64,000 bases of DNA, taken from assembly GCA_963798855.1 (NCBI GenBank), contig CAWCUU010000002.1, forward strand, positions 1,364,567 to 1,428,566. Direction: 5' to 3'. How positions within the stretch are numbered: position 1 is the stretch's first letter; every line of letters starts with the position of its first letter. A program made the position numbers and the translations under genes. The notes under the pieces are model-generated. The model searched no databases, was not told the origin of the DNA, and was given only the letters and a program-made list of their open reading frames with translations. Positions 7,253 through 62,830 of the stretch are shown piece after piece. Source of the DNA: an uncultured Gemmatimonadales bacterium (GTDB lineage: Bacteria > Gemmatimonadota > Gemmatimonadetes > Longimicrobiales > RSA9).

Positions 7253-7496
7253 CGTTTCGCTAGGAGTCGGGGACGCGATGCGGCCAGATCGATCGACGAG
7301 GTGTTTTCGCCGTGGCGTAATATATTCGCCACCGTCAGTGGGCGTTGACCGCTCTGGAAGTGACGTTGACGGTTGGCGTCACGGTCTGCCGCCTATCGGG
7401 TGAGCGGTTGACGGGCATCGGTGGCCGTTTAGCCGGGCGTGCAGCGGCGTGGGCAGCCCGGACGCAAACGGCAGGATCGGAAGAGTCACAGGAGAG

Positions 7497-8330: not shown

Positions 8331-8356
8331 AGGCGCTGACGGAAGGCGCTGACGAA
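8331..8356. repeat. two tandem AAGGCGCTGACG(G/A) units immediately after the tauE stop
   Basis: GTGA-AGGCGCTGACGG-AAGGCGCTGACGA. Forward-orientation member of the GGCGCTGAC family. Confidence 0.8.
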
Positions 8357-8425
8357 GGGGCGGGGGCTGATCGGAGTGGCCGCTCCGGCTATGGAGGTGC
8401 GCGTCGGCTCGGCCGAGATTATGGC

Positions 8426-8848: not shown

Positions 8849-8861
8849 TGGACTACCTTCC

Positions 8862-8944
8862 AGTCAGCGCCTCTCAGTGAGCGCCTCTCAGTCAGCGCCT
8901 CTCAGTAGCGCCTCGCCGTCAGCGCCTCACCGTCAGCGCCTCAC
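8862..8944. repeat. six tandem GTCAGCGCCTC(TCA/ACC) units in reverse-complement orientation, between the four-helix-bundle gene stop and the BNR hydrolase stop
   Basis: CAGTCAGCGCCTCTCAGTGAGCGCCTCTCAGTCAGCGCCTCTCAGTAGCGCCTCGCCGTCAGCGCCTCACCGTCAGCGCCTCACC. Inverted relative to 8331..8356. Confidence 0.85.
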
Positions 8945-11900
8945 CGTGAAATGATGACCGGCAGCCTTCGCCCTTGCAGCTTCGCCTGAAAGGAGGGGAG
9001 CTCCGTCTCCATCAGCGTGCGGTAGTCCTGGCGCGCTTTCTCCAGTCGCTGGCGCAGGACGTCGTGGGTCTCGCGCTGTTGCTGGGTGGGAGGGAAATCC
9101 GCGCCGTTCGCGAAGACGTCGCTGGCGAGGGCGCTGAGGCGGCCGTAGAGCTTCATGGGCGCGCGGAACGCGTCCTCGCGGGCGCCGGTCAGGTTGACGT
9201 CGAAGAGCTGGCGCTCGACGTCCAGGGTCTTCTGCTCGAGCTGGCGCGACGCAGAGACGATGTCCGACGCGGTGGAGTCGTCGTGGAGCATCGTCTGTGC
9301 CTCATCGAGCTGCTTCCTCAGCCACTCCAGGCGGTCGACCATGCGTGTCAGGTCGCCGAGCTCGTCGCTCAGCTGCAGCCCCATCGCGACCTGTGCGGCA
9401 ATGTCGCCGACAGAGCCCGTGGAGTGCGGGTCCTTCAGCACCGTCAGCGGCTGGGTGAGCGTCCGGTCGCCGACGGCGAGGCGGACCGTGTACTGTCCCG
9501 GCGCGACACGCGGCCCCACCTGTCCGCCGGTGAGGTCGAGGTCCCAGGTGACGAGCGGACGAGTGCCATCTTCGCGCATCTCGACCCAGGGCGCCGCAGG
9601 CGGCGGCGTGCGCAGCGCCGGCTTCGGCGGCGCCTCGTAGCGGAGGTCCCACCAGACGCGGTTGAGCCCCTGCTTCTTCCCCCCGTCGAGAGTGCGGATG
9701 ACGCTGTCGGCCTCGAGGATCTCGACCTCGACGGGGCCCTCGTTGTCGGCGCCGAGCCAGTAGTCGATGTCGGCGCCGTAGCGCGGGTCGCTGCCGGTCA
9801 CGTTGCTGTTCGGCGCGGCGGCGACGTCGTGGATCGGAATGAAGCGATAGGCCGGCCTCGGCGCGAGGAGCTGCACGTCGGAGGCGAGCAGCTCGGCGTC
9901 GAGCGCGCGCAGCGGCGTGACATCGTCGAGAATCCAGTAACCGCGGCCGTAGGTGCCGATGACGAGGTCGTGGAAGTGTGGCTGCACGGTGAGCCAGTAT
10001 ACGGGCGCGGGTGGCATGTTGTTGCGCAGCGCGTTCCAGTGCGCGCCGTCATCGAGCGAGAACCAGGTCGAGTTCTCGGTTCCGGCGTAGAGCATGCCGC
10101 GACGGACGGGGTCTTCGCGGACGACGTGAACGAAGGAGAAGACGGAGGGGGGCAGGTCCCCGCTGACTCGCTTCCAGCTGCGCCCGAAGTCGCGGGTCTC
10201 GTAGATGTAGGGCTCGAAATCGGCCATCTGATGGCGGTCCACCGAGATGTAGGCGGTGCCGGCATCCCAGCGCGACGGCTCGACGTTGGAGATCGTGCCG
10301 TAGGGCGGCAGGTCGCGGATGTTCTTGGTGATGTTGACCCAGCTGCCGCCGCCGTCGCGGGTGAGGCTGAGCTGGCCGTCATTGGTCCCGGCCCAGATGA
10401 CCCCCGCCTGCACGGGCGACTCGGCGATTGCGAAGAGCACGGAGCCGTCGAAGGTCATCAGGTTGTCGGTGGTCATGCCGCCGGAGCTCTTCTGCTTCGA
10501 CTTGTCGTTCAGCGTCAGGTCGGGCGAGATGACGTTCCACGAGGCGCCGCCGTCGGTCGTCAGGTGGATACGCTGACTGCCGACGTAGACCCGATTGTGA
10601 TCGTGAGGCGAGATGGCGATCGGGAAGGTCCAGTGCCAGCGCTCCTTCAGCTCGGCCGGCGGCCAGCCGTAGCCCGCCTCCGGCCACACACGGACGTTGC
10701 GCTTCTGCTGCGTCGCCGGGTCGTAGACCTCGAGTCCGCCGTCGTAGCAGCCGGACCAGACGACATTGCCGCCGGCGGTATCCGGAATCGCGAAGCCGCT
10801 CTCACAGCCGCCGACGGAGTGCCACAGACCCTCCGTGATCGAGCCCTGCCGGCTGTTGCTCGGGCCCTTGTAGGAGTAGCCATCCTGCCGGTTACCGTAG
10901 ACGTTGTAGGGGATCTCGTTGTCCACGTGGACGTGGTACATCTGCGCGATCGGGAGCACCACGCGCTGGTAGCTGCGGCCGCGGTTCAGCGTGATGGAAG
11001 CGCCGCCGTCGTGAGCGACCATGTAGCGGTCCGGGTCCTTCGGGTCGATCCAATGTCGTGGTTGTCGCCGCCGGCGCGGAAGCCGCTCTCCAGCGTCGCG
11101 CCGGCGTCGCGGGAGACGCTGAACTTGACGGACGCGAAGTAGAGCCGGTCCTCGTCGCGCGGATCGATGGCGAAGCGAGTGTAGTAGGATGCGCGCTCGG
11201 CCATGTCGTGATCGCGGCTGACGAGGTGCCAGCTGCGGCCGCCATCATCGGAGCGGTAGAGCTCGGGATCGTGCCGCTCGAGCAGGGCGTATACACGACG
11301 CGAGTCGGAGGGCGCGACGCGCACGGCGATCTTGCCGATCGAATCGCCGGCGGCCGGTAGTCCGTGGCCGCTCACCTTGGCCCACGTGTCCCCTCCATCA
11401 CGCGAGACGTAGACGCCGCCGCCGGTGCCGCCGCTCGCCAGCATCCACGGATCGATGCGCAGGCTCCACATCCCGGCGAAGATGACGCTGGGGTCGTTCG
11501 CGTCGATGTCGAGGTCGGCGCATCCGGTGTTCTCGTCGACGAAGAGGACGCGCTTCCAGGTGCGGCCGCCGTCGGCCGTCCGATAGACGCCACGCTCCTG
11601 CTGGGGCCCGTAGGCATGTCCGAGCGCGCACGCGAAGACCACGTTCGGATCGCTCGGATCGACGGCGATACGGCCGATTCGCCCCGTCTCCTCGAGCCCC
11701 ATGCGGCGCCAGCTCGCTCCGGCGTCGGTCGACTTGTAGATGCCATCGCCCAGCGAGAGGGCGGGCCTGATGATGAAGGTCTCGCCCGTGCCGGCCCAGA
11801 CCACATCCGAATCATGCGGATCGATCGCGAGCGCGCTGACCAATGAGACATCCTGATCGTCGAAGACCGGCTCCCAGCTCGCGCCGCCGTCCCTGGTCTT

Positions 11901-13331: not shown

Positions 13332-15209
13332 TTACAGCTCGACCTGCATTCCGATCTCGACCACCCGGTGCGGTGGGATGCGGAAGAACGCGGTGGCGGA
13401 CTCGGAGTTGCGGGACAGGAACGCGAAGACACGCTCGCGCCACAAGGCCATGCCCTTGTGTCGCTTCGATGCGAGGATCCGCTCGCGCCCGAGGAAGAAC
13501 GAGGTCTGCAGGACCCTGTACTCGATGCCGTAATTCTTCGCGTGCATCAGCTCGCGCGGGACGTGCGGGTCCTCCATGAAGCCGTAGTGTATCACCATCC
13601 GGAAGAAGCCGTCGCCCATATCCTCGACCTCGAGCCGCTCGTCGGAGCGGACGTGCGGCACCTCCTCGGTGACGACCGTGAGCACGATGATCCGTTCGTG
13701 CAGGACCTTGGTGTGCTGCAGGTGGTGCAGCAGCGCGGGCGGGGTGACGTCCGGGTTGCCGGTCATGAAGACGGCGGTGCCCGGGACGCGGATCGGCTCC
13801 TCGGCGAGGATGTTCTTCTTGAAGAAGTCGAGCGGCACGGCGGTGGTCGAAAGGCGGTTCCGCAGGATCGCGCGCCCCTTCTTCCACGTCGTCAGCACGG
13901 TGAACACGATACCGGCGACGAGCAGCGGGAACCAGCCGCCGTCGACGACCTTCAGGATGTTCGCGCCGAAGAAGGAGACATCGAAGCAGAGGAAGAAGGC
14001 GCAGAGTGCGCCGGCCTTCCAAACGCTCCATCCCCAGAGGCGGCGCGCCACGATGTAGAAGATGAGGGTCGTGATGACCATCGTGGTCGTGACGGCGACG
14101 CCGTAAGCGGCGGCGAGGTTGGTGGAGGAGCCGAAGCCGATGACGAGCCCGATCGTCGCGAGCATGAGCACCCAGTTGACGAACGGGATGTAGATCTGGC
14201 CGATTTCCTCCGCGGAGGTGTGCTCGATGTTCAGGCGCGGACAGTAGCCGAGCTGGACGGCCTGGCGCGTGAGCGAGAAGGATCCGGAGATCACGGCCTG
14301 CGATGCGATGATCGCGGCCAGTGTCGCGAGTCCGACGAGCGGATACAGCGCCCAGTCCGGGGCGAGCCGGTAGAACGGGTTGTGGGCTGCTTCCGGGTAC
14401 ATCAGCAGCAGCGCGCCCTGGCCGAAGTAGTTGAGCAGCAGGGCGGGCAACACGAGCGTGAACCAGCCGAGGCGGATCGGCCGGCGGCCGAAGTGCCCCA
14501 TGTCGGCGTACAGCGCCTCGCCGCCGGTCACGACGAGGAAGACGGAGCCGAGCACGAGGAAGCCGTGGCCGCCGTTGTCGATGAAGAAGCGGACGGCGTA
14601 CAGTGGCAGCAGCGCGCGGAGCACCGCGGGCTGTCGCAGGATCGCCGCGATGCCCAGAACCGAGATGACCGCGAACCAGACCAGCATGATCGGCCCGAAG
14701 ATCAGGCCGACGCCCGCGGTGCCGCGGCGCTGGAAGAGGAAGAGGGCGACCAGGATCGCGACGACGATCGGGATGATGAACGGGTCGAAGGCGGTCGTTG
14801 CGACGCTGAGCCCCTCGATGGCGCCGAGCACGGAGATGGCCGGCGTGATCATCCCGTCGCCGTAGAGCAGCGCGGCGCCGAACAGGCCCATCGCGACGAG
14901 GATCCAGGCCCGGCTCCACGTCTTCGCGCTCTTCTGCGGCGCGACGAGCGACATCAGAGCGAGAATGCCGCCCTCGCCCCTGTTGTCGGCGCGCATGATG
15001 AAGACGAGGTACTTGAACGAGATGACGAGGATCAGCGACCAGAAGATCAGCGACAGCACGCCGAGCACGTTGTCGTGGCTGATCTGCACCGCGAACGCGC
15101 CGTAGAAGCATTCGCGAATCGCGTACAGCGGGCTGGTCCCGATGTCGCCGTAGACGACGCCGAGGGCGGTCAGCGTCAGGAAATGAGAGATGTCGGCCGC
15201 TGGGCTCAC
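13332..15209 (-). CDS. kup: Kup/HAK/KT potassium uptake transporter
   Basis: 625 aa with an N-terminal GVVYGDIGTSPLY motif and KUP-type architecture throughout. Confidence 0.95.
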   Translation of the reverse strand: MSPAADISHFLTLTALGVVYGDIGTSPLYAIRECFYGAFAVQISHDNVLGVLSLIFWSLILVISFKYLVFIMRADNRGEGGILALMSLVAPQKSAKTWSRAWILVAMGLFGAALLYGDGMITPAISVLGAIEGLSVATTAFDPFIIPIVVAILVALFLFQRRGTAGVGLIFGPIMLVWFAVISVLGIAAILRQPAVLRALLPLYAVRFFIDNGGHGFLVLGSVFLVVTGGEALYADMGHFGRRPIRLGWFTLVLPALLLNYFGQGALLLMYPEAAHNPFYRLAPDWALYPLVGLATLAAIIASQAVISGSFSLTRQAVQLGYCPRLNIEHTSAEEIGQIYIPFVNWVLMLATIGLVIGFGSSTNLAAAYGVAVTTTMVITTLIFYIVARRLWGWSVWKAGALCAFFLCFDVSFFGANILKVVDGGWFPLLVAGIVFTVLTTWKKGRAILRNRLSTTAVPLDFFKKNILAEEPIRVPGTAVFMTGNPDVTPPALLHHLQHTKVLHERIIVLTVVTEEVPHVRSDERLEVEDMGDGFFRMVIHYGFMEDPHVPRELMHAKNYGIEYRVLQTSFFLGRERILASKRHKGMALWRERVFAFLSRNSESATAFFRIPPHRVVEIGMQVEL

Positions 15210-21480: not shown

Positions 21481-21870
21481 CGTGGCGCCGCCCTGGCGGG
21501 CGGGGCGCCGGCGCTTCGCGCGGGGCGCTCCTGCGGAGGGCGCCACTTCGCGGGGGCGGCTTCGCCGGGGGGCGCTCCGCCCTGACGGGCGATCGCGGGG
21601 GGCGCTCCGCCCTGGCGGGCGATCGCGGGGGGCGCTCCGCCCTGGCGGGCGATCGCGGGGGGCGCTCCGCCCTGGCGGGCGATCGCGGGGGGCGCTCCGC
21701 CCTGGCGGGCGATCGCGGGGGGCGCTCCGCCCTGACGGGCGATCGCGGGGGCGCTCCGCCCTGACGGGCGATCGCGGGGGGCGCTCCGCCCTGACGGGCG
21801 ATCGCGGGGGGCGCTCCGCCCTGGCGGGCGATCGCGGGGGGCGCTCCGCCCTGACGGGCGGTCGCGGGGG
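21481..21870. repeat. 30-bp tandem repeat GGCGCTCCGCCCTG(G/A)CGGGCGATCGCGGGG, ~10 near-perfect copies (21568-21868) plus degenerate copies at the 5' flank, upstream of the ECF sigma gene
   Basis: Read directly. Copies differ mainly by G/A at one position (order A,G,G,G,G,A,A,A,G,A) and by one copy of 29 bp. Lies between the nhaA stop and the sigma start on the minus strand. Confidence 0.95.
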
Positions 21871-21871
21871 G

Positions 21872-23191
21872 CTATCCAGCGGGTGGCGTCGTGCGGAGGA
21901 GCAGCCAGCCCACCGCGCCGCTGAGGATGGAGCCGGCGAAGACGCCGACCTTGGCGGCGGCGAGGGCATGGGGGTCGCCGAGGCCGAGCGTCGCAATGAA
22001 GATCGACATCGTGAAGCCGATGCCGCACAGCCATGCGGCGCCGTAGATCTGGCGCCAGGTGACGCCGGCGGGGAGACGGGCGAGGCCGAGTCCGATCGCG
22101 GCGCGGGCGAAGATCATGACGCCGGCCTGCTTGCCGAGGACGAGGCCGAGCGCGACGCCGGCGGTTACGTTCGCGGCGGCGCCGGTGCTGCCGCGCAGGT
22201 GCACGCCGGCGTTCGCGAGCGCGAAGAGGGGCATGACGAGGTACGCGACGTATCCGTGCAAAGCGTTTTCGAAGCGGCAGAGCGGGCTCTGCACGTGCCG
22301 GCAGGCCATCTCGAGGTGGTGCGCGGCGTGGCGCTGCTCGATCGTCGGTGGTCCGGCCCGGTGGCCGTGGGGGTCGAGGATCTCGGCGAGGCCGCGCACG
22401 TGCTGGACGAAGTCGCTGCGATGCATGCGTCGCGTCGCGGGGATCAGCAGCGCGACGAGCACACCCGCCACGGTGGCGTGCACGCCGGAGTCCAGGACCG
22501 TGATCCAGACGCCGCCACCGAGCACGGCGTAGACGACCGGTCGCCAGATGTGCAGCCGGTTCGCGAGCGCGATCAACGCGAGCAACAGCAGCGCGATGCC
22601 GAGGCTGGTCCATGCGATCTTCCCGGTGTAGAAGATCGCGATGACGATCACGGCCCCCAGGTCGTCGGCGATCGCGAGGGCGGCGAGGAAGATTTTCAGG
22701 CCGAGCGGAATCCGTCGGTTCAGCAGCGATAGCACCCCGAGCGAGAAGGCGATGTCGGTGGCCATGGGGATACCCCAGCCGGTGTGCGCCGGGGTTCCGG
22801 CGTTCAGGGCGAGGTAGATGGTAGCCGGCACGATCATTCCGCCGAGCGCCGCGATCAGCGGTAGAAGCGCCTTCTTCGGTGCCGAAAGCTCGCCGATCAG
22901 CAACTCCCTCTTGATCTCGAGGCCGACGAGGAAGAAGAACATGGCCATCAGACCATCGTTGATCCAGTCGCGTAGCGGCTTCTCGAGGGCGTAGAACGGG
23001 CTGGAGACGCCGATCGGCATCTCCCAGACGCGGTCGTAGGAGGCCGCGAAGGGACTGTTGGCCCAGAGGACGGCGGTCAGAGCGGCCGCCAGCAGGATGA
23101 TTCCGCCCGACGCCTCCATCCGGAGGAAAGTCTGGAACGGGCGGATCAGGGCGCTCCGCGGGAGGCGCCTTCGTACCTTCGTCGCGTTCAT
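21872..23191 (-). CDS. nhaA: Na+/H+ antiporter NhaA
   Basis: NhaA fold motifs (FFFLVGLEIKRE; AIADDLGAV). Internal ATG 23191 (MNATKVRRRLP...). Confidence 0.9.
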   Translation of the reverse strand: MNATKVRRRLPRSALIRPFQTFLRMEASGGIILLAAALTAVLWANSPFAASYDRVWEMPIGVSSPFYALEKPLRDWINDGLMAMFFFLVGLEIKRELLIGELSAPKKALLPLIAALGGMIVPATIYLALNAGTPAHTGWGIPMATDIAFSLGVLSLLNRRIPLGLKIFLAALAIADDLGAVIVIAIFYTGKIAWTSLGIALLLLALIALANRLHIWRPVVYAVLGGGVWITVLDSGVHATVAGVLVALLIPATRRMHRSDFVQHVRGLAEILDPHGHRAGPPTIEQRHAAHHLEMACRHVQSPLCRFENALHGYVAYLVMPLFALANAGVHLRGSTGAAANVTAGVALGLVLGKQAGVMIFARAAIGLGLARLPAGVTWRQIYGAAWLCGIGFTMSIFIATLGLGDPHALAAAKVGVFAGSILSGAVGWLLLRTTPPAG

Positions 23192-33447: not shown

Positions 33448-34978
33448 GTAGCATTGAAGTAGAAATGTCCTAGCTGAGTGAAGTAGAAATGTCCTCCTTC
33501 GGGATCTGTTCGAATACGTTCGGGCGGACCCTGCTCCCGGAGAGAGGACGTGCTGAGCTTGAGCCAGAGTGATCGTGATTACCTGTTCGTCCTTCGCCAA
33601 GTCCAGGATCAGAAGCTGTCGGTGAGCGAAGGAGCTCGCCGACTCAGGCTTGGAGTGCGGCACATGCGGCGTCTCGTCCGCCGATTCGAGAAGGAAGGGG
33701 ATGCTGCGGTGATCCACCGGCTTCGTGGGCGGCCCTCCAACCGGCGCGTGAAGGGTGAGGTTCGCGTTCGAGCGCTCCAGAAGGCCCGTGAAACGCTCTA
33801 CAAGGACTTCGGACCCACGCTTCTGAGCGAGCACCTCGCGCGCGATCCGGTGATCGGGTCGATCCACCCTTCTACGCTGCGGCTCTGGCTTATCGCGGAC
33901 GGGCGCTGGGAGATCACACCCCGCAAGCACAAGCACCGCAGACGAAGGGAGCGGCGCCCCTGCTACGGCGAGCTCGTGCTCATGGACACCTCGATCCACC
34001 CCTGGCTCGAGGAGCGCAGCACCGAGGAGATCGTGCTCATCGCAATGATCGATGATGCGACGAGTCGCCTCTACGCCCGCTTCTTCCCCCGCGACACGGG
34101 AGCCGCAAATCGCCAACTCCTCATCGACTACCTCCGTCTGCACGGGCGGATGGGTGCTCTCTACACCGACCGTGCCGGCCACTTCGAGGTCCACTTCCGC
34201 GCCTCCGAGAGGCGGGAGAAGGACTTGGAGGCAGGGCTTACCCTCATCGAGCGTGGCCTCGCTGCTCTGGAGATCGAGCTGATCCGCGCCCTCTCTCCTC
34301 AAGCCAAGGGACGAGTGGAGCGGCTCTTCGGCACACTGCAGGACCGGCTGATCAAGGAGATGCGCGTCGCCGGGATCTCCAGCCTGGAGGAGGCGAACCG
34401 CTTTCTTCAGGAGGTCTTCATTCCGTTCTGGAACGAGCGCTTCGTTGTCGAGCCAGCCCAGAGCGCAGATGCGCACCGCCCGCTCCCCGGAGACGCCGAC
34501 CTCCTACGCCTGTTCGCAGAGACTGAGGAGCGTGTCATTCGGGCTGACTTCGTCTTCCGCTACAACAGCCGCTACTTCCAGATCGAAGCGGACGAGGCGG
34601 ACGGCGCCATGCCCAGGAGGCGGCTGACGATCGAAGAGCGCCTCGACGGCACGACGCACTTCCGGTGGCGAGGGCGCTACCTGCAGCCGACCGCTCTCGC
34701 GGCGCCTCCACAACCGAAGCAGACCACGGCGCCTGCGTGTCCGAAGCCCCATTTGGCGACTGGCGCTGCAGACAGGCCCCCGGCCGCTGACCACCCATGG
34801 CGCCGATTCCCCGTCCTGGTCGGCCGAGGCCGCATGCGCACTTCAGTCGTGGCCGCCGCTTCGCTACGGCCCGACACCCACGTGGCAGCAAAGACGCCAT
34901 CAACATCCACGAAGCCGGGGGGCACCTAGGACATTTCTACTTCACTCAACCCTAGGACTTTTCTATTTCACTCGAACA
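33448..34978 (+). mobile_element. insertion sequence (~1.53 kb), ISNCY(IS1202-group)- or IS481-like, single transposase ORF, flanked by an 18-bp direct repeat
   Basis: Ends carry tandemly duplicated ~22-bp terminal repeats (left: GTAGCATTGAAGTAGAAATGTCCTAG + CTGAGTGAAGTAGAAATGTCCTCC; right: CTAGGACATTTCTACTTCACTC + CTAGGACTTTTCTATTTCACTC). TCGGGTGGCCGAGATCGT occurs immediately outside both ends (33430-33447 and 34979-34996). The ends have lower GC than the host. Confidence 0.8.
33550..34929 (+). CDS. IS transposase (HTH + DDE/integrase-core type)
   Basis: N-terminal HTH (LSVSEGARRLRLGVRHMRRLVRRFEKEGDAAVIHRLRGRPSNRRV) typical of ISNCY/IS481-type transposases. Followed by a DDE core. Confidence 0.85.
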   Translation: MLSLSQSDRDYLFVLRQVQDQKLSVSEGARRLRLGVRHMRRLVRRFEKEGDAAVIHRLRGRPSNRRVKGEVRVRALQKARETLYKDFGPTLLSEHLARDPVIGSIHPSTLRLWLIADGRWEITPRKHKHRRRRERRPCYGELVLMDTSIHPWLEERSTEEIVLIAMIDDATSRLYARFFPRDTGAANRQLLIDYLRLHGRMGALYTDRAGHFEVHFRASERREKDLEAGLTLIERGLAALEIELIRALSPQAKGRVERLFGTLQDRLIKEMRVAGISSLEEANRFLQEVFIPFWNERFVVEPAQSADAHRPLPGDADLLRLFAETEERVIRADFVFRYNSRYFQIEADEADGAMPRRRLTIEERLDGTTHFRWRGRYLQPTALAAPPQPKQTTAPACPKPHLATGAADRPPAADHPWRRFPVLVGRGRMRTSVVAAASLRPDTHVAAKTPSTSTKPGGT

Positions 34979-35658: not shown

Positions 35659-35749
35659 GGTCGTTCCGGGTTGGGGGCGCTCGGTGAGGGAACCTCCGCT
35701 GAAAGATAGGGGCCGCGGATGAGGACCGCACGGGTGACGTCGGCGCTGA

Positions 35750-35930
35750 TACTGCGAGGCGCTGACTGCGAGGCGCTGACTGCGAGGCGCTGACTGCGAG
35801 GCGCTGACTGCAGGCGCTGACTGCAGGCGTTCACCACAGGCGCCTCGGCGTCAGCGCCTTCCTTCGACGCCTCGCCGCCAACGCCTGCTTTCAGCGCCTT
35901 CCTTCGACGCCTCGCCGTCAGCGCCTTACA
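35750..35930. repeat. palindromic GGCGCTGAC array: five forward CTGCGAGGCGCTGA units, a central spacer, then reverse-orientation GTCAGCGCC/GACGCCTCGCC units
   Basis: ACTGCGAGGCGCTGACTGCGAGGCGCTGACTGCGAGGCGCTGACTGCGAGGCGCTGACTGCAGGCGCTGACTGCAGGCGTTCACCACAGGCGCCTCGGCGTCAGCGCCTTCCTTCGACGCCTCGCC...GTCAGCGCCTTA. Between the saccharopine dehydrogenase stop and the LemA start. Confidence 0.85.
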
Positions 35931-37056
35931 CCACGTCGTGCCGCCAGGCGACGCCGCGCTGACGCAGGTGGTCGACGACGAAGTCGAGGCAGCCGGGCTC
36001 ACGACCGATGTATTCGGGCGGCGAGATGCCTGGTCTCCGGTAGCGGCCTTCGGCCAGCAGTCGAACCGCCGCCGTGCAGGTGTAGCCCGTCGTGCGGGCC
36101 ATCGACGATATTCCGGTTGTGCGATCGTGGCGGTCGAGCAGACTCCAGACGTGTCGCACGGTCCGGCCGTCCGTTCGGCCGTCCACCTCCACGCGCATCA
36201 CGGTCAGGTCTTCTTCCCCCTCACGGAAGCTCCACGCCTCGAACAGCAGCGCGGCGGTGAGGTCCAGCGGTCGGACCTCGGCCGTGCCGACGCGCAGCGG
36301 GGCCTCGGCGAAGAATCCCGTTTCGCTCAGCATGCGCATCCGCTCCGCGTGGCCGGGATAGCGGAGCGTCTTCTCCACCATGTCGGGCACCTCCGCGGTA
36401 TAGAGCAGCGTGCGGAGGCCGTCGGTGTTGAACGCTTCCAGTGTGCCGACACCGTCGAAGTCGAGCAGCTCCACCTCCGATAGCGCCGGCAGCGTGATCT
36501 CCTGCCCGCCGCGGCGGATGCGGGCCGGCCTCGTGTATTCGGCGATGACGTCGATCGGCGAGAACGGCGCCCGGTACTCGTAGGGCCAGTGCCGCACGCT
36601 CGGAAGTCCGCCCACGACGCAATGGAAGCGCTCCACCGCGTCCAGCTCCCGCTCGAGGTCTCCGAGCACGAGATTGCTGAAGCCCGGCGCGACGCCGCAG
36701 TCCACGATCGCGGTCCGCTCGACCTCGCGCGCCAGCGCGTCCAGCTCGAAGGCGTCCTCCTCGAAGAATGAGATATCGACGATGTCGCGCTCGGCCTCGA
36801 GCACGCGTCGCACGGTCTCGAATCCCATCGGCCCCGGTACCGCGCCAACGACCAGCTCGTGCGCTGCGACCGCCCGACGCAGCTCTTCGCGGGCGGAGAG
36901 GTCCAGCCGCTGTCGCTCGAGTCGGGGCACGTCGCTCAACCTCGCGAGGGCGCGCTCGGAGATATCCGCGACGGTCACCTCGAAGGCGTCGCTGCCGGCG
37001 AGGTCCCGCGCGATCGCGGCGCCGACCCGTCCGGAGCCCAGCACGATCACTCTCAT
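35926..37056 (-). CDS. saccharopine dehydrogenase family oxidoreductase (NAD(P)-binding)
   Basis: Internal ATG 37056 (MRVIVLGSGRVGAAIARDLA, Rossmann GxGxxG) with GGGAGA upstream. C-terminal Sacchrp_dh domain. Confidence 0.85.
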   Translation of the reverse strand: MRVIVLGSGRVGAAIARDLAGSDAFEVTVADISERALARLSDVPRLERQRLDLSAREELRRAVAAHELVVGAVPGPMGFETVRRVLEAERDIVDISFFEEDAFELDALAREVERTAIVDCGVAPGFSNLVLGDLERELDAVERFHCVVGGLPSVRHWPYEYRAPFSPIDVIAEYTRPARIRRGGQEITLPALSEVELLDFDGVGTLEAFNTDGLRTLLYTAEVPDMVEKTLRYPGHAERMRMLSETGFFAEAPLRVGTAEVRPLDLTAALLFEAWSFREGEEDLTVMRVEVDGRTDGRTVRHVWSLLDRHDRTTGISSMARTTGYTCTAAVRLLAEGRYRRPGISPPEYIGREPGCLDFVVDHLRQRGVAWRHDVV

Positions 37057-37221
37057 GTCGTCTCCCGTGGCGAGGAATGCATCCGTGCCGGAGCATGTGG
37101 CCGCGCCGTCCTCGCGCGCAAGCGGGCCGTCTGGCATGTGCCCTAAGTGGCGTGACTATTGCACTTACAATGGGCACCGACCGTTAGAAGCCCGTTTTGG
37201 ACCGGAACCACGGGAGTCATC

Positions 37222-45380: not shown

Positions 45381-45610
45381 GGGTGCCCGCGCCGCGACGC
45401 GCCCCGGCGCGCGGCGTTCCCCGGGTCCCCTCCGGCCGTCCCGGCCGACTCCGAGCCGGAGCCGCGAGCCTCCTGTCGAGGGGGCGGCCCCGGCTCCGGT
45501 CGGATCCGCTCGGTGATCGGCAGCAGCCCGCACTACTCCAGCGCCCGCGCGCGGACCATCCTCGATCGCCGTCCCTCGTCGTATATTGCCGCGATCTCGC
45601 AGCACTCCTA

Positions 45611-45650
45611 CTTCGCCGATCCACTTCACCCTTCACAGTTCCCCTTCATG
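45611..45650 (+). promoter_or_regulatory. leader of the Tat-aminotransferase gene carrying CCACTTCACCCTTCACAGTTCCCCTTCATG, the same CTTCACAGTTC 11-mer as the permease leader
   Basis: An exact 11-mer is shared with 3425..3500. Both lie in lower-GC stretches 10-35 nt upstream of the start codon. Confidence 0.4.
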
Positions 45651-45659
45651 GAGACACCC

Positions 45660-46811
45660 ATGCGCAGACGCGACTTCCTCCGTGGCTCGATCGCCCTGGC
45701 GGGGACGGGGGCGCTGGGTCTCGCTCCCGCCGGTGGCGGTGCGGCCGTGCTCGATGCGCTCCGCGAGCGGCGGCCGGGATCGGACTCCGGGGGTCGGGGC
45801 GACGGGCCGATCCGGCTCGCGTCGAACGAGAACCCACTCGGGCTGTCGCCGGCGGCGCGAAGGGCGGTGATCGACGGGCTTTCGGAGGGAAACCGCTACC
45901 CGCACCTGCACGCGGCCGCGTTCCGCCCGAAGCTGGCGGAATTCCATGGAGTGCCGGCCGAGAGCGTGGTTCTGGGGAACGGTTCGACGGAAGTGATCCA
46001 GATGGCCGTGCAGGCGCTGGCGCGGCCGGGAATGCGCTACGTAATTCCCGATCCCACGTTCGAGAACGTAGCGGATTACGAGGCGCCGTCCGGTCTGGAG
46101 CTGGTGAAGGTGCCGCTGCTCGCGGACTGGTCACACGACCTGCAGCGCATGCGCGAACTGGCGGGACGCGGGCCGGCGCTCGTCTACATTTGCAATCCGA
46201 ACAACCCGACGGCGTCGCTCACGTCGACCGCGGACGTGGCGGCATGGATCGCGGATGCTCCGGAGCAGCTGTTCTTCCTGGTGGACGAGGCGTACATCCA
46301 TTTCGTGGATGTGGCGGGGCACGAGACGGCGATCCCGCTGGCCCTGGAGCGGCCGAACGTGGTGGTGACGCGGACGTTCTCCAAGATTTACGGCATGGCG
46401 GGGCTGCGGCTCGGATACGGCATTGCGCAGGCGGAGACGGCGAAGCGCCTGTCCCCGTACGCGGCGGATGTGAACACGAACCAGCTCGCGCTTTTCGCGG
46501 CGGAGGCGAGCCTGCAGGACGAGGCGTACGTGGAGGAGGCGAAGCGGACGAACGAGGCGGGGCGCCGCGTGTTGTACGGCGTGCTGGACGAGCTGGGGCT
46601 CGAGCGGATTCCCAGCCATGCGAACTTCGTGATGCACCGCGTTGCTGGTGAGTTGGGCGCGTATATCGATCGGATGGCGCAGGAGGGAGTGCGCGTCGGC
46701 CGCCCCTTCCCTCCGCTGCTCGGCTGGAACCGCGTGTCCATTGGCCTGCCCCGGGAAATGCAGCGCCACGCCGAGGTGCTGCGCGCATTCCGCAGCCGCG
46801 GATGGGTGTAG
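45660..46811 (+). CDS. class I/II PLP aminotransferase (histidinol-phosphate-aminotransferase-like) with a twin-arginine (Tat) signal peptide
   Basis: MRRRDFLRGSIALAGTGALG Tat signal. PLP-lysine motif TFSKIYGMAGLRLGY. Start chosen at ATG 45660 (GGAGA RBS); ATG 45648 is possible. Confidence 0.85.
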   Translation: MRRRDFLRGSIALAGTGALGLAPAGGGAAVLDALRERRPGSDSGGRGDGPIRLASNENPLGLSPAARRAVIDGLSEGNRYPHLHAAAFRPKLAEFHGVPAESVVLGNGSTEVIQMAVQALARPGMRYVIPDPTFENVADYEAPSGLELVKVPLLADWSHDLQRMRELAGRGPALVYICNPNNPTASLTSTADVAAWIADAPEQLFFLVDEAYIHFVDVAGHETAIPLALERPNVVVTRTFSKIYGMAGLRLGYGIAQAETAKRLSPYAADVNTNQLALFAAEASLQDEAYVEEAKRTNEAGRRVLYGVLDELGLERIPSHANFVMHRVAGELGAYIDRMAQEGVRVGRPFPPLLGWNRVSIGLPREMQRHAEVLRAFRSRGWV

Positions 46812-47098
46812 GGGCAGGCGCTGACGGCAGGCGCTGACGGCAGGCGCTAACGGCAGGCGCTGACAGCAGGCGCTTACGGCAGGCGCTGACGGCAGGCGCT
46901 TACGGCAGGCGCTGACAGCAGGCGCTGACGGCAGGCGCTGACAGCAGGCGTATCCTGCTTCGACGCATCGTCCTGAGCGCCTCGCAGTGCGCGCCTCGCC
47001 GTGCGCGCCTCGCCGTGCGCGCCTCGCCGTGCGCGCCTCGCCTTGAGCGCCTCACTTTGAGCGCCTCGGTTCGAGCGCCTCGCAGTCAGCGCCTGCCT
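46812..47098. repeat. largest GGCGCTGAC array: ~10 forward GGCAGGCGCT(G/T/A)AC units (46812-46945) followed by a reverse arm of (GTGCGCGCCTCGCC)4 and GAGCGCCTC units, in the convergent gap between the aminotransferase and ABC-2 permease genes
   Basis: Read directly. The arms are imperfectly complementary, giving a long imperfect hairpin. Confidence 0.9.
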
Positions 47099-47923
47099 CT
47101 AAAGGTCGCGCCTGCGGTAGACGAGGTAAGCGAGCATCAGAAAGAAGACGATCTCGGCGGTGGCGACGGCGGCGAGGAGGCCGGTGTCGTCGAGCGCCGG
47201 GATCGGGCGGTTCGCCTTGGTCAGCGTGGCGACCATCTTCTCGTAGGCGGCGGCATCGTAGCGGGCGGGCTCGATGAGCTCGGAGAAGAGCCTCATCGGC
47301 AGGAAGCCGGCTGCCTTCGCCCACGCGCCGCCGAGATGCCGGAGCCCGGCGCCGAGCAGCTGCTCGAGCACGGCCAGGTAGAAGAACAGGATCGCCATGG
47401 CCGGCCCGGAGCTGCGGGCGAGGAAGGCGACAAAGAAGCCGAGCGACGTGACGCCGCCTATCGCGAGCAGCTCGGCGCCCATCAGCTGGGCATCGCCGAC
47501 GCGAACGATCGGCCCGGTGACGCCGCCCGTGGCGATCGTCGCGCCGCCGACGACCGAGATGTGGAGGGCGAAGAACCCGACCACGACCATTGCCCACAGC
47601 ATGAGCTTTCCGCCGAACCACTGGTCCTTGGAGAGCCCGTCGATGACGTTCTGTCGGGCGGTCCGCCAGGAGAACTCGCTGGAGACGAGCAGGATGAGCA
47701 GGATCGCCGCGAAGAAGGCGGCGGGCACGGCCGGGTCGTTGATGAGATCGGACCAGGCGGTCGGAAGCGCAAGCGGCAGCCGTTCGGGGTGCTTCGCGTG
47801 CTCGCGGATGGTCTCGAACATCATGATGCCGAGCATCGCGGTGAACAGCCCCGCGGTGACCATCGCGGCGGGTCGCTTCCTCGTCTTGAGCGTCTCGTTC
47901 CGGGCCAGCACGCCGAGCGTCAT
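47099..47923 (-). CDS. ABC-2 family transporter permease
   Basis: 274 aa, six TM segments. Overlaps the ATPase gene by 4 nt. Confidence 0.8.
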   Translation of the reverse strand: MTLGVLARNETLKTRKRPAAMVTAGLFTAMLGIMMFETIREHAKHPERLPLALPTAWSDLINDPAVPAAFFAAILLILLVSSEFSWRTARQNVIDGLSKDQWFGGKLMLWAMVVVGFFALHISVVGGATIATGGVTGPIVRVGDAQLMGAELLAIGGVTSLGFFVAFLARSSGPAMAILFFYLAVLEQLLGAGLRHLGGAWAKAAGFLPMRLFSELIEPARYDAAAYEKMVATLTKANRPIPALDDTGLLAAVATAEIVFFLMLAYLVYRRRDL

Positions 47924-48852
47924 GCCACACCTTCCATCTCAATGGCGTCAGCCGGCTCTTCGGCCTGCGTCAGCTCCATGAAGGCATCCTCGAGCGACTG
48001 GCGGCGCAGCCCGAGGCGGGAGAGGTACACACCGCGGTCGGCGATGAAGCGGTTGAGCGCGGCGAGGTCGTCATCCTCGAGGGTCACGCGCACGACGTCG
48101 CCCTCGGCCTCGACGATTGTCGCGGCCGGGTATCCGGAGGCGATCGCGGCGAGGGCCGTCGCATCGCCACCGCCGATTTCGGCGACGACGGCCCCGCTGA
48201 CAATGTCTGCGACGCTGCCCTGCCGGATGATGCGACCGCGTCGGATGATCGCGACGTGGGTGCAGGTACGCTCGACCTCGTAGAGCAGGTGGCTGGAGAG
48301 GAAGATCGTCTTGCCGCGGGCGGCGAGCTCGCCGATGATCTCGCGGATCTCGCGCATCCCTTCGGGGTCCAGCCCATTGGCGGGCTCGTCGAGCACGATC
48401 AGCTCCGGGTCTCCGAGCATCGTCGCGGCCACGGCGAGGCGCTGCTTCATGCCGAGGGAGTAGGTCGAGTAGCGGTCTTTGCGACGCGCCGTAAGGCCGA
48501 CGAGCTCGAGCGCCTTATCGATGTCGCGACGCCCGACGCGCTTGACGTTGGCCACTACGCGCAGGTTGTCGAGCCCGCTAAGGTACGGGTAGAAGTTCGG
48601 ATTCTCGAGGGTCGCTCCGACGCGCTGACGGGCGCGGTGCAGTCCGCTGCGGCCGCTCAGCCCGAAGAGCCGGATCTCGCCGGCCGTCGGAGTGATGATG
48701 CCGAGCAGCATCCCGATCGTGGTCGTCTTGCCGCTGCCGTTCGGGCCGAGGAAGCCGAAGACCTGGCCGGCCTCGACCGTGAAACCGATGCGATCGACCG
48801 CGACCTGCCTCGGGTACCGCTTCGTCAAACCGCGGGTTTCGATGATGTTCAC
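47920..48852 (-). CDS. ABC transporter ATP-binding protein
   Basis: Walker A GPNGSGKTT, signature LSGGMKQRL-like (YSLGMKQRL), Walker B LIVLDEP. Confidence 0.95.
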   Translation of the reverse strand: MNIIETRGLTKRYPRQVAVDRIGFTVEAGQVFGFLGPNGSGKTTTIGMLLGIITPTAGEIRLFGLSGRSGLHRARQRVGATLENPNFYPYLSGLDNLRVVANVKRVGRRDIDKALELVGLTARRKDRYSTYSLGMKQRLAVAATMLGDPELIVLDEPANGLDPEGMREIREIIGELAARGKTIFLSSHLLYEVERTCTHVAIIRRGRIIRQGSVADIVSGAVVAEIGGGDATALAAIASGYPAATIVEAEGDVVRVTLEDDDLAALNRFIADRGVYLSRLGLRRQSLEDAFMELTQAEEPADAIEMEGVA

Positions 48853-59959: not shown

Positions 59960-61044
59960 GCCGGCACGGAGTCATCGCCCGCTGGGGCACCTGGCTGCCC
60001 ATCACCGCCGAGACGCCCCGCCTGACGCTGCAGGAGGGAGACACGCCGCTGCTGCCGGCGCCCCGCCTCGCGCGTTGGGTCGGGGTCGAGGAGCTGCTGC
60101 TGAAGGTCGAGGGTCTGAACCCGACCGGCTCCTTCAAGGATCGGGGCATGGTGGTGGCCGTCGCGAAGGCGCTCGAGGATGGCGCCGAGACCGTGCTGTG
60201 CGCGTCCACCGGGAACACTTCCGCAAGCGCCTCCGCCTATGCGGCGCGGGCGGGGATCCGCGCCGTGGTGCTGCTCCCCGGCGGAAAGGTCGCGGCCGGA
60301 AAGGTGGCGCAGGCCGTCGTCCACGGCGCCCGCATCGTCTCGCTGCGCGCGAACTTCGACGTCGCGCTGGATCTCGCGCGGGCCATCGTCGCCCGTCACC
60401 CCGCGGTGCTCGTGAATTCCGTGAACCCGTACCGGCTCGAGGGTCAGGCCACCGCCGCCTACGAGATCTGCGAGGCGCTCGGCGGCGCGCCCGACGTACT
60501 GGCGCTCCCGCTCGGCAACGGCGGCAACATCACGGCGTACGCCATGGGGTTTTCGCGCTGGAAAGAGGCGGGGCGCATCGCAGCCCGGCCGGCGCTGATC
60601 GGGGTGCAGGCGGAGGGCGCCGCGCCGTTCGTCGCCGGACACCCGATCGACGCGCCGGAGACCGTCGCGACCGCGATCCGTATCGGCCGCCCGGCGACGT
60701 GGGAGCCGGCGATCGCCGCGGCGACGGAGTCCGGAGGTCACATCCTCGCCGTTCCCGACGACGCCATCCTCGAGGCCTATCATGAGATTCCGCGACAGGA
60801 GGGCGTGTTCTGCGAGCCGGCATCTGCCGCATCGGTCGCCGGGCTGCGGGCCGCGGTGCGGGAAGGCCGCATCGATGCGCGCTCACGCTGCGTGTGCGTG
60901 CTGACCGGAAACGGGCTCAAGGATCCGGCGACCGCGGTGCCGGCCGATTTCCGGGTCGAGGAGCTGGAGGCGGATGAGGCAGGGGTGGTGGCTGCGCTTC
61001 GCTTGCAGGGCAAGGGCAAGGGCAAGGGCAAGGGCCAGGGCTAG
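59956..61044 (+). CDS. thrC: threonine synthase, with an unusual (GK)n C-terminal tail
   Basis: PLP-lysine motif NPTGSFKDRGM. ATGA overlap with thrB. C-terminus GKGKGKGKGQG is encoded by a (GGCAAG)5 microsatellite. Confidence 0.9.
   Translation: MSRHGVIARWGTWLPITAETPRLTLQEGDTPLLPAPRLARWVGVEELLLKVEGLNPTGSFKDRGMVVAVAKALEDGAETVLCASTGNTSASASAYAARAGIRAVVLLPGGKVAAGKVAQAVVHGARIVSLRANFDVALDLARAIVARHPAVLVNSVNPYRLEGQATAAYEICEALGGAPDVLALPLGNGGNITAYAMGFSRWKEAGRIAARPALIGVQAEGAAPFVAGHPIDAPETVATAIRIGRPATWEPAIAAATESGGHILAVPDDAILEAYHEIPRQEGVFCEPASAASVAGLRAAVREGRIDARSRCVCVLTGNGLKDPATAVPADFRVEELEADEAGVVAALRLQGKGKGKGKGQG
61008..61040. repeat. (GGCAAG)5 GGCCAGGGC hexanucleotide microsatellite forming the 3' end of thrC
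   Basis: Read directly. An imperfect inverse copy (CTCGCC)3(CTAGCC)2 sits at ~61401-61430. Confidence 0.8.
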
Positions 61045-61080
61045 GAGGGGAAGAGCGAGGAAGGGAGGAGGTCGGTGGGC

Positions 61081-61338
61081 TCAAAGGTCAGGTGGGGGAG
61101 TGTCGGAGGGGTGAGGGAAGAGGAGGTCGGTGGCGGCGTGGAGCTCGAGGAGGGCGTCGGGGACGCCGAGATCGAGCAGGGCCCGGCGGACGGGAGGCTT
61201 TCGGGCGGGATCGTCGACCACCACCCAGACGCGGTCCGCCGTCACGAGCAGCCGGACCACTCCCTCGATGGCCTGAATCTCGGAACCGAGCCGTCGCACG
61301 ATCGCGTCTGGCTCTTCCGGCGGTGTCACGTCGGTCAT
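61081..61338 (-). CDS. small hypothetical protein (85 aa)
   Basis: Non-junk composition (MTDVTPPEEPDAIVRRLGSEIQAIEGVVRLLVTADRVWVVVDDPARKPP...). No known family. Sits between the hexamer repeat and a hairpin. Confidence 0.3.
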   Translation of the reverse strand: MTDVTPPEEPDAIVRRLGSEIQAIEGVVRLLVTADRVWVVVDDPARKPPVRRALLDLGVPDALLELHAATDLLFPHPSDTPPPDL

Positions 61339-61362: not shown

Positions 61363-61416
61363 GACGAGGGCGAGGGACCCGGAAGCAGCCCGGCGACTCC
61401 TCGCCCTCGCCCTCGC
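61363..61416 (-). terminator. GC-rich hairpin (GAGGGCGAGGG ... CCCTCGCCCTC, ~11-bp stem, ~25-nt loop) between the lipoprotein gene stop and the small ORF start
   Basis: Self-complementarity read directly. No U-tract, so classification as an intrinsic terminator is weak. Confidence 0.3.
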
Positions 61417-61431
61417 CCTAGCCCTAGCCTC

Positions 61432-62532
61432 TTAGTGATCGTGCGCGTGGTGGAAGGGCTGGAAGACGTTCTCCGCGAAGGCGAAGAGGTCGTCGATGGC
61501 CTGCCAGAGCTTCTGCAGTGCCTGCACGTCCGCGTCGCTCAGAGCGGATCCGTCGGGATGCGTGAATGTCGGGCTCTCGGCGGTCCCGCCAATGATCACC
61601 ATCGCATCGCCGTTGTAGGTGAGCTGACCGTCGATGGAACCGTCCTGCGCCAGCGTGGTGGCGAGCACCGCGGTCGAGCCATCATGCGTGACGGTCATCG
61701 TCACGTCGAAGGTGAAGGGCTCCTCCTGACCTATCGCGATCTGGCCGGTGCCAATCAGGTGGATGGTGTCATCGGTGCCGGACCTCGAGACCGAGTAGTC
61801 GATCGCGAGCTGGAGGAAGTCGGAGCTCTGGGAGATCGTGACGGTCTGCGAGAGGTCGAAGTCGACCTGGCTCGACCCGTCGGAGAGGAGGCCGACCGCG
61901 CCCAGCGTGGCCGTGACCGCCGTCGTGGTCTCCGTGTAGGACGCATCCACGTAATAGTCCGCCAGCACCGCCGAGGTCGGGCTGGTCCGCACGACCTTGA
62001 TGCCGAGGCGCGTAGACGCAGCCGTGCTGAGGTCCGTCAGGTCGACATAGCCCAGAGCGTTCAGCGGCGCCGCCGGCCGTTGGGTAGTCGGGTCGATCGC
62101 GTAGTAGATGATTCGGACGCCGTTCGCCGGCGCGTCCATCGCGTCCGGATCGATCACGTAATACCCGTCGGTCGTGCTCCACACCAGCGTCTTGCCAAGC
62201 AGGTTGGACGGGAACATCGGCAGCCCGGCGGGCTGCTCCGCGTAGCGCCTCGCGCGATCGTACGACGGCAGCAGCCCGGCCGGCGACGTCGGGCCGGGAA
62301 CGAGTTGCGCCGAGATCGTGCCGGCGAGCACATCCGCGGCGAGCCCGATACTGCTCAGCGCGTTCGCGTCGGCCGGCACACCGGTAACGTTCTGCGCGGC
62401 GGTCGCGGCTCCCTGCGGATCGTAGGGGCCGTTCGGCCCGGCCACTTTAGCGGAATCACAGCCCGCGGCGACGAGCCCGATCGCCAGCGCGATCGCGGCC
62501 GTGCGCGCCGGCACGCCGTGTCTGGACCTCAT
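61432..62532 (-). CDS. lipoprotein, function unknown (366 aa)
   Basis: Internal ATG 62532 with GGAGGG RBS. Lipobox MRSRHGVPARTAAIALAIGLVAAGC. Ser/Thr/Asp-rich beta-rich body. Confidence 0.6.
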   Translation of the reverse strand: MRSRHGVPARTAAIALAIGLVAAGCDSAKVAGPNGPYDPQGAATAAQNVTGVPADANALSSIGLAADVLAGTISAQLVPGPTSPAGLLPSYDRARRYAEQPAGLPMFPSNLLGKTLVWSTTDGYYVIDPDAMDAPANGVRIIYYAIDPTTQRPAAPLNALGYVDLTDLSTAASTRLGIKVVRTSPTSAVLADYYVDASYTETTTAVTATLGAVGLLSDGSSQVDFDLSQTVTISQSSDFLQLAIDYSVSRSGTDDTIHLIGTGQIAIGQEEPFTFDVTMTVTHDGSTAVLATTLAQDGSIDGQLTYNGDAMVIIGGTAESPTFTHPDGSALSDADVQALQKLWQAIDDLFAFAENVFQPFHHAHDH

Positions 62533-62830
62533 GTGGGACCCTCCGTCTTGGTTGGCGAGAGGGGTTGCGGCCGGGGACCGACCCCGAAAACGGCGAGGAT
62601 GTGGTGTGGGCAAGCCGCGTTCCGGGGCCGCGGAAACAGCTGAAGTCACTGCGGCCGCTACAGTTGGTAGACGGCTGGCGAGGCCACGGCCGTGATGGGG
62701 TGTGCATTGAGGTGGACAGCAGGCGTACTTTTTTCAGGGCGAGGGGCCGTGCTGGCCCGAAACCGGCAGGAGGATCTGCTGGAGGTCATCGAGGCGCACC
62801 CGCAGAGACTCGTAGAGCCAAATAGATCCA

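Follow-up and report, generated by a model that had tools for sequence, protein, structure and literature searches.

A 64-kb stretch of DNA from an uncultured soil bacterium of the Gemmatimonadota (contig CAWCUU010000002.1; "the window" below means this whole stretch) was found to carry tandem arrays of one common unit of 13-14 nt at five intergenic sites, termed S1 to S5. With a probability of about 0.4, we tentatively read these arrays as a genome-specific, slippage-prone family of non-coding minisatellites of common source, of which the inverted form would act as a hairpin at transcript ends.

The repeat unit and its arrays

An earlier reading of the same DNA (the original prediction) had proposed five related intergenic arrays on a shared core, and this was confirmed by counting. 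The core GGCGCTGAC was matched 25 times in the window, which has a G+C content of 69%, against 2.38 +/- 1.5 matches expected; none of 100 shuffles reached 25, and 23 of the 25 matches fell in the five reported gaps. The heptamer AGGCGCT was found 70 times, with 18.4 copies expected. Outside the arrays, GCAGGCGCTGAC with at most two mismatches was matched about 25 times versus 21.4 expected by chance, and thus the motif occurs only as arrays, with no solitary copies in the 64 kb. A DNA-uptake-sequence or Chi-like motif was ruled out by this lack of solitary copies.

The unit consists of AGGCG-CTGA-C followed by a spacer of 3-4 nt. When the arms were split at the anchor AGGCG, which is invariant across units, about 55-60 units were obtained over seven arms. 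All arms are made up of head-to-tail runs of 2-15 units, which abut each other and leave 3-5 variable nucleotides between cores. Periods and copy numbers (Table 1) were taken from Tandem Repeats Finder (TRF). Periods of 13 and 14 nt are mixed, and higher-order periods of 26, 27 and 40 nt were found. Units of 10-26 bp had been predicted, but the 26 corresponds to a two-unit higher-order repeat and no period of 10 was present. Coding repeats were ruled out, as TGA falls into each of the three frames when periods are 13 and 14.

In S1, the 26-nt repeat is formed by AGGCGCTGAGGGC alternating with AGGCGCTGACTGC or AGGCGT(A/T)TACTGC. The forward arm of S4 ends with a variant unit, AGGCGTTCACCAC, and the symmetry centre of S4 is a perfect palindrome, AGGCGCCT (35840-35847), where cores of the two orientations overlap. 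In the forward arm of S5, AGGCGTATCCTGC is the innermost unit. Element lengths range from 30 to 287 bp. S4 and S5 had been regarded as the two largest elements, but S1, which is no palindrome, is longer (193 bp) than the whole of S4 (about 185 bp).

That the family is dispersed and belongs neither to the clustered regularly interspaced short palindromic repeats (CRISPR) nor to insertion sequences (IS) or classical miniature inverted-repeat transposable elements (MITEs) was borne out. CRISPR was ruled out because there are no unique spacers, its definition requiring repeats of 23-50 nt and spacers of similar length. MITE and IS were ruled out, as no flanking direct repeats or target-site duplications were present at S4 or S5 and the elements measure 30-287 bp. 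An IS481/IS3-like transposase open reading frame (ORF; HTH_28/29/32 + rve_3) lies at 33550-34929, about 0.8 kb from S4, and is not flanked by units.

Table 1. Coordinates of the arrays, the gaps that they occupy and the IVP cassettes (positions in the window unless a contig is named)
Feature	Coordinates	Strand	Description
S1	7060-7252	+	Single forward array; period 13/26, 14.6 copies; about 15 units of 13 nt; 193 bp
S1 gap			LTXXQ gene (6396-6962, -) / TauE (7449-8330, +); divergent (5'/5'), 486 bp; promoter region
S2	8329-8358	+	Period 13, 2.4 copies; two forward units GAAGGCGCTGACG; left arm around IVP gene
S2 position			Right behind TGA stop of TauE (7449-8330, +); tail-to-head
IVP gene	8426-8848	+	Four-helix bundle, PF05635 23S_rRNA_IVP / TIGR02436, E 1.8e-18; between S2 and S3
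S3	8861-8943	-	Period 14, 5.9 copies (TRF 8861-8942); six reverse units; right arm around IVP gene
S3 position			At stop of BNR/Sortilin-like gene (8941-11022, -); convergent
S4 forward arm	35742-35834	+	7 units: four 14-nt CTGCGAGGCGCTGA, then 13-nt; TRF 35742-35829, period 14
S4 reverse arm	35840-35928	-	About 6 units, 40-nt higher-order repeat; TRF 35840-35926, period 13/27/40
S4 gap			Saccharopine dehydrogenase stop (35926-37137, -) / LemA start (-); tail-to-head
S5 forward arm	46812-46950	+	11 units of 13 nt (GGCAGGCGCTGAC); TRF 46813-46950, 10.6 copies
S5 centre	46951-46973		23-nt non-repeat segment; apical hairpin of fold
S5 reverse arm	46974-47098	-	About 9 units of 14 nt (CGGCGAGGCGCGCA / CTGCGAGGCGCTGA); TRF 46974-47094, 8.6 copies
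S5 gap			HisC-like aminotransferase (45513-46811, +) / ABC-2 membrane protein (47099-47923, -); convergent; whole 287-bp gap filled
IVP cassette, window	8329-8943
IVP cassette, L047	3005-3527
IVP cassette, L048	2928-3370
IVP cassette, L049	2949-3387
IVP cassette, L050	2949-3401
IVP cassette, L051	2930-3388

Placement at stop codons

A preference for 3' gaps had been predicted, which held for four of the five sites, all at gene 3' ends, but not for S1 in its divergent 5'/5' gap. Relative to the stop codon, the core starts at 0 nt for TauE, at -1 nt for the BNR/Sortilin-like gene and for saccharopine dehydrogenase, and at +4 nt for the HisC-like aminotransferase and the ABC-2 membrane protein. 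Each arm that adjoins a gene 3' end was found in the sense orientation of that gene. The last codon and the TGA stop of the BNR/Sortilin-like gene are part of the first S3 unit, the reverse arm of S4 begins at the TAA stop of saccharopine dehydrogenase, and the arms of S5 meet TAG stops on both sides. A stop-codon bias of array-flanked genes was dismissed, because TAG accounts for 30% of the stops in the window and two TAGs at S5 are thus unremarkable. At the other end of S4, the start of LemA (35658) follows after 84 bp.

Alignment of the C-termini was carried out for four of the five flanking proteins, saccharopine dehydrogenase being left out. The aminotransferase, the ABC-2 protein and TauE end on the same conserved residues as their homologues, and the BNR/Sortilin-like protein ends within a variable tail, a few residues off its homologues, so that its last codon may be array-derived. 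As the aligned C-termini are native or near-native, the arrays sit tightly against stop codons, and these are native wherever a check was made. The gene pair around S5 is not present in identical form in relatives, the two genes being separated by a patatin gene in the related locus L041. The nearest convergent spacers beside the same genes measure -4 bp (patatin/ABC-2, L041) and 12 bp (aminotransferase/small ORF, L044). Between the first unit of S5 and the local gene end, 5 of 13 positions matched, which equals chance, and the gene end is no degenerate unit.

Folding of facing arms

The original prediction had proposed to fold both arms of S4 and S5, and very stable structures were obtained. 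The whole S5 element was computed to form one long imperfect hairpin of -210.9 kcal/mol (z -9.5), and S4 likewise (-130.2 kcal/mol, z -8.5). These two were the sole strong outliers among the folded intergenic gaps of 25-600 nt. Single arms folded at the level of shuffled sequences (z 0.17 for S1, 0.09 and 0.65 for the forward and reverse arms of S5, and -0.75 for the forward arm of S4), apart from S3 and the reverse arm of S4, for which a modest excess of structure (z about -3.8 to -3.9) was attributed to the near-palindromic GGCGCU. In the region 8322-8950, S2 pairs with the distal units of S3 in both the minimum-energy and the centroid fold, and thereby encloses the ORF of a gene of the IVP family (PF05635); the complementarity of S2 and S3 extends over 32 nt at 75%, with 519 nt in between. 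An intrinsic (Rho-independent) terminator was rejected for S4 and S5, in which the hairpin is present but the U-tract is lacking.

Common descent and proposed mechanism

Identical stretches are shared by S1 and the S4 forward arm (22 nt), by the S4 forward and S5 reverse arms (21 nt), and by S3 and the S4 reverse arm (19 nt). A rare variant, AGGCGT(A/T)T(A/C)C, is interspersed among the units of S1 and recurs in S4 and in S5, each time as the innermost unit of the forward arm, and AGGCGTATACTGC of S1 is identical to AGGCGTATCCTGC of S5 at 12 of 13 positions. These shared stretches and rare variants indicate common descent of the arrays. Together with the S5 gene end, which is not a unit, they argue against five independent births by slippage. 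They favour a history in which units were copied between loci and then expanded and homogenised locally; the two arms of S5, for example, now differ in period.

Changes in array length would come about by replication slippage or unequal exchange, as is suggested by the higher-order repeats of 26, 27 and 40 nt and by the mixture of 13- and 14-nt periods. Template switching or gene conversion, acting at the near-palindromic core, might have carried copies to other loci and to the opposite strand; a strand switch there would leave a palindrome like the one in the centre of S4. They would persist only where insertion is harmless, in tiny gaps directly behind native stop codons. At S5, at S4 and at S2/S3 with the enclosed IVP gene, where arms face each other, transcripts from either side would fold into a long, imperfect stem whose length may reach about 120 bp. 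The main effect may be a two-way barrier at transcript ends, either by polymerase stalling or termination, by blocking exonucleases or as a target of RNase III, and such a barrier would insulate genes that abut or overlap in related genomes. The hairpins themselves are a result of computation, and from them we infer the barrier effect. A role of the double arrays as bidirectional terminators or stabilisers, as originally put forward, is plausible on the basis of the modelled folds.

Several points weigh against this interpretation. Function, spread and copying mechanism are all inferred. Other convergent gaps in the window showed no strong structure, and thus the genome has no general need of such barriers. 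No U-tract or T-run follows the S4 and S5 hairpins, which run directly into the neighbouring stops, and a terminator would need far less length than the arrays have. S1, the second-largest array, has one orientation and no excess structure and lies between divergent genes, so that a role as hairpin barrier cannot explain it. The array that occupies the corresponding BNR/TauE gap of a relative (L045, see below) is not palindromic. Furthermore, the source genome was seen through the window alone, and it comes from a long-read metagenome assembly with at least one frameshifted gene, so that differences of a single base between units of 13 and 14 nt should be taken with some caution.

Distribution in other genomes and turnover in relatives

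A scan for three consecutive units in 185,579 species genomes (one genome each) identified 39 loci in unrelated taxa, with at most two per genome and mostly 3-7 copies. In 31 of these 39 loci (L002-L040), the first unit contains or closely follows the end of a sense ORF of 100 codons or more, as compared to 17.7% for random positions. The loci are 13-14-bp arrays containing AGGCGCTGA, and the gene's own ...GCGCTGA often forms the first, slightly different unit. Judged by these features, they look like independent tandem duplications of gene tails including the stop codon, and not like members of the family in the window; gene-tail duplication apparently is a general, neutral route to such arrays. 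Both kinds of array have 13-14-nt units with ...GCGCTGA, in sense, at the end of an ORF. However, gene-tail duplications are single loci of 3-7 copies with the last codons of the gene as first unit, whereas in the window the same unit occurs at five loci and the C-termini are native where they were aligned and clear (HisC-like aminotransferase, ABC-2, TauE). It is possible that a gene-tail duplication was the seed for the family.

In metagenomes of the JGI, a stricter, family-specific pattern was found on one contig (L043, 6 units), which is about the chance expectation. A dispersed family of this unit was thus seen in no other genome sampled by the two scans. Literature searches retrieved no description of the unit or of intergenic repeats in Gemmatimonadota, in agreement with the original prediction, which was not aware of a described element of this kind.

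Short-read contigs tend to end within arrays (the end of L001, positions 1-64 of L016 and the end of L004), and homologues of the IVP gene mostly come from contigs 0.5-2.5 kb long. In metagenome-assembled genomes (MAGs) built from short reads, such arrays are probably under-represented and the feature under-sampled.

The proteins flanking the arrays had their named best matches in Longimicrobiales or Gemmatimonadota MAGs, and the next relatives were 62-76% identical; the window's own proteins are recorded on a contig of 1.93 Mb. The closest comparison was offered by L045 (BNR/Sortilin-like protein 76% identical), which is syntenic with the window over 2-21 kb and lacks the IVP gene. Its BNR/TauE gap contains a different array, GGGGTCTGGGGTACG x7.7, which ends 5 nt from the TauE stop, and its TauE/LTXXQ gap a 22-mer x2.2. 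The unit GGGGTCTGGGGTACG, with G4-type runs, is itself dispersed in L045 (13268-13371 and 17595-17729, inverted and about 4 kb apart), the second array lying between the divergent genes of an RF-1-domain protein and a DinB-like protein. Arrays of still other units were present in L041, L044 and L046, and the unit of the window was absent from relatives that keep the same genes.

When intergenic tandem arrays with a period of at least 6 and at least 4 copies were counted, the window contained 12.5 per 100 kb and its relatives 19, in comparison to 2.5 in other taxa (285 kb, mostly high-GC); the Gemmatimonadota loci were the window, L041, L044, L045 and L046. Array-rich gaps with rapid turnover of units therefore look like a property of this clade as far as these loci represent it, while the overlap of occupied gaps between the window and its relatives is only suggestive statistically.

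Arrays of other units are also found in the window. A 30-bp unit x10 (CGGGGGGCGCTCCGCCCTGACGGGCGATCG) at 21566-21872 adjoins a Na+/H+ antiporter gene at its stop and is situated upstream of an ECF sigma-factor gene; in L045, about 600 bp (1200-1810) of unrelated 21-mer and 18/51-mer arrays are located upstream of a sigma-factor gene. A degenerate heptamer array, TGAAGTG x10 at 3428-3500, adjoins the stop (3503) of a 900-aa gene (3503-6205, -) and is located upstream of an amino-acid permease gene.

The arrays might also be selfish or neutral junk, of the same origin but without function, tolerated where they do no harm and with hairpins as a by-product of template switching. Such a purely selfish reading is somewhat unlikely when taken by itself, and it is nearly as likely as the functional one. 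It is in line with the complete turnover of units between syntenic relatives while some gaps stay occupied, with the many unrelated array types in the same genomes and with the similar arrays at gene tails of unrelated taxa. The spread in size from 2 to 15 units, the structureless S1 and the convergent gaps without hairpin fit to it as well. On the other hand, the flush placement and the order of arms, with the G-rich arm first in all five inverted pairs of the window and L041, weakly suggest constraint, and long palindromes, as a rule unstable in bacteria, have persisted here, which hints at their being tolerated or beneficial.

Mycobacterial interspersed repetitive units (MIRU) are a minisatellite family with tandem arrays at many intergenic loci, against stop and start codons and with varying copy number. 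The MIRU units measure 46-101 bp, contain small ORFs and have a single orientation within operons, without inverted arms. The window resembles MIRU in that the same tandem unit abuts coding sequences at several intergenic loci, but unit size and internal ORF differ.

The IVP gene and hairpin cassettes

The gene enclosed by S2 and S3 belongs to the family of ORFs known from intervening sequences (IVS). In the 23S IVS of Coxiella burnetii, inverted repeats at its ends form a 28-bp stem that is cut by RNase III, the loop contains the S23p ORF, and heptamer repeats of variable copy number are present (PMC4990558). S2-IVP-S3 has the same topology as this element, in which the long stem carries a loop of about 400 nt with a four-helix-bundle ORF, variable-copy short tandem repeats lie beside the ORF and the stem is a substrate of RNase III. 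The window element differs in that it lies between protein genes, its arms are themselves tandem arrays and most copies (S4, S5, S1) lack an ORF. Arms enclosing about 350-520 nt are found in S2/S3, whereas the arms of S4 and S5 enclose a centre of only 10-23 nt, and a PF05635 ORF is found at S2/S3 but not at S4, S5 or S1. A scan of the whole window with Rfam matched no family and no rRNA.

Five IVP homologues on long contigs (L047-L051, from genomes of 46-71% G+C including Kofleriaceae and Planctomycetota MAGs) were all found to be bracketed by inverted arms of tandem hexamers. These arms measure 22-44 nt and are 82-100% complementary, with 349-450 nt between the best-matching arms. In all five, C-rich (CCCNNG)n lies upstream and G-rich (CNNGGG)n downstream, at or over the 3' end of the ORF. 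A C-terminal dipeptide repeat such as SGSGSG was present in 45 of 120 IVP homologues versus none of 240 proteins in two control families; this tail is the translated 3' arm. No paper describing arms around non-rRNA PF05635 genes was found in literature searches, and no IVP relatives were found in IMG/VR.

Inverted hexamer arrays were also observed without an IVP gene. At 61007-61045 of the window, (CAAGGG)n encodes the C-terminal GKGKGKGKGQG tail of a threonine-synthase-like gene, and an inverted (CCCTCG/CCCTAG)n at 61399-61429 begins 3-4 nt past the stop of a minus-strand gene (61432-62649). The pair brackets an 85-aa ORF (61081-61338, -) with no Pfam or NCBIfam match, and its hexamer unit is that of the arms of the Planctomycetota IVP cassette L050. 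In L041, two perfect hexamer arrays, TGAGGC x8.3 (14026-14075) and CCTCAG x5.5 (14236-14268), are inverted to each other at a distance of 160 bp, in a gap from which an ABC ATPase gene and an adenine glycosylase gene diverge. They enclose no ORF, and 3 nt separate the end of the right arm from the ATG.

These observations raise the question of whether the arrays are arms of IVS-like mobile or selfish hairpin cassettes, with S2-IVP-S3 as the full form, S4 and S5 as cargo-less, MITE-like derivatives and S1 as a solo arm, and with the IVP protein or a partner recognising or making the arms. We consider this unlikely. The IVP gene is absent from the syntenic relative, its flanking arms pair in the fold, all six IVP genes examined are bracketed by inverted short-tandem-repeat arms (349-519 nt apart), and the dipeptide tails and the similar parts of the Coxiella 23S IVS (PMC4990558) point in the same direction. 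However, the window arms are 13-14-mers and not CCCNNG hexamers, and the polarity is opposite, since the G-rich arm comes first in all five inverted pairs of the window and L041, and (CCCNNG)n in the five non-rRNA homologue cassettes. No IVP gene or paralogue was found in 83 kb of related loci with 16 arrays, neither a target-site duplication nor an empty site was seen, and the IVP gene could have landed in a pre-existing palindrome. Because of the opposite polarity, the different units and the array-rich relatives without IVP, the link between the S family and the IVP cassettes is architectural and not demonstrated.

A more general form of this idea would regard PF05635 genes as the cargo of small hairpin cassettes with inverted short-tandem-repeat arms that insert at gene ends in many phyla. 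The GGCGCTGAC arrays and the hexamer pairs (61007/61399 and L041) would then be cargo-less or variant members of the same mobile or selfish class, with arms made or recognised by the element's own machinery. This, too, is rather improbable.

Other explanations

Binding sites for a sequence-specific DNA- or RNA-binding protein, be they iteron- or centromere-like, decoys or nucleoid-organising, with AGGCG(CTGA) as recognition site, could account for the strictly conserved anchor of 5-9 nt, the variable spacer and the fixed phasing of 13-14 nt, and for the position of S1 in a promoter region. Such a role is nevertheless very unlikely, because solitary sites are missing elsewhere in the 64 kb, the unit is missing from relatives with the same genes, and the other array families of the genome have unrelated units.

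The original prediction had compared the arrays to repetitive extragenic palindromic (REP) sequences and bacterial interspersed mosaic elements (BIMEs). As such a family, they would be mobilised by a REP-associated tyrosine transposase (RAYT, of IS200/IS605 type). The arrays and REP/BIME are both short, species-specific, extragenic and mostly located at gene 3' ends, inverted copies can form large hairpins, and termination and mRNA stability have been proposed as roles of REP/BIME. Moreover, many units read CGTCAGCGCC on their reverse strand, reminiscent of CGTC-tagged REPs (PMC3733652). A REP unit, however, is an imperfect palindrome of 20-40 nt with a stem of 5-13 bp and a loop, and REP clusters alternate in orientation, head-to-tail pairs being rare (PMC3733652). 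The window units of 13-14 nt have no stem-loop, fold like shuffles as single arms and form long head-to-tail arrays, an arrangement that REPs avoid, and neither a RAYT nor a Y1 transposase domain was present among the 45 window ORFs scanned with Pfam. The comparison is thus contradicted on the defining structure of the unit, and membership in this family is highly improbable.

In the window, the BNR/Sortilin-like gene is split (about 10986-11022) into a 693-aa ORF and an overlapping upstream ORF, whereas all homologues have about 1060 aa; this is either a frameshift from an assembly indel in long reads or a pseudogene. An independent assembly in Logan (contig L001, run ERR11718636) is 99.93% identical to positions 47073-48465 of the window and has its end 26 nt within S5, which confirms the outer 26 nt of its reverse arm. 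The outer S5 units are therefore not an artefact, and the short-read assembly breaks there. That the arrays as a whole are an artefact of long-read metagenome assembly, as the frameshift and a contig naming that suggests a long-read assembler could imply, is hardly credible in view of the seven arms with shared structured variants, the reproduction of outer S5 units and similar arrays on an Illumina-era JGI contig.

Significance

The analysis went beyond the original prediction in three respects, namely the flush placement of arrays at stop codons, the pairing of S2 and S3 around the IVP gene, and arrays of other units in the gaps of relatives. The family would represent a new type of extragenic repeat, in which dispersed minisatellites with inverted arms form hairpins on the 100-bp scale exactly between stop codons, and such repeats have no description for Gemmatimonadota in the literature searched. 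The lead on the IVP gene could matter more. The arms around PF05635 genes hint at a wider, undescribed class of hairpin cassettes, which might give a handle on the nature and movement of IVS elements and on a very large family of four-helix-bundle proteins.

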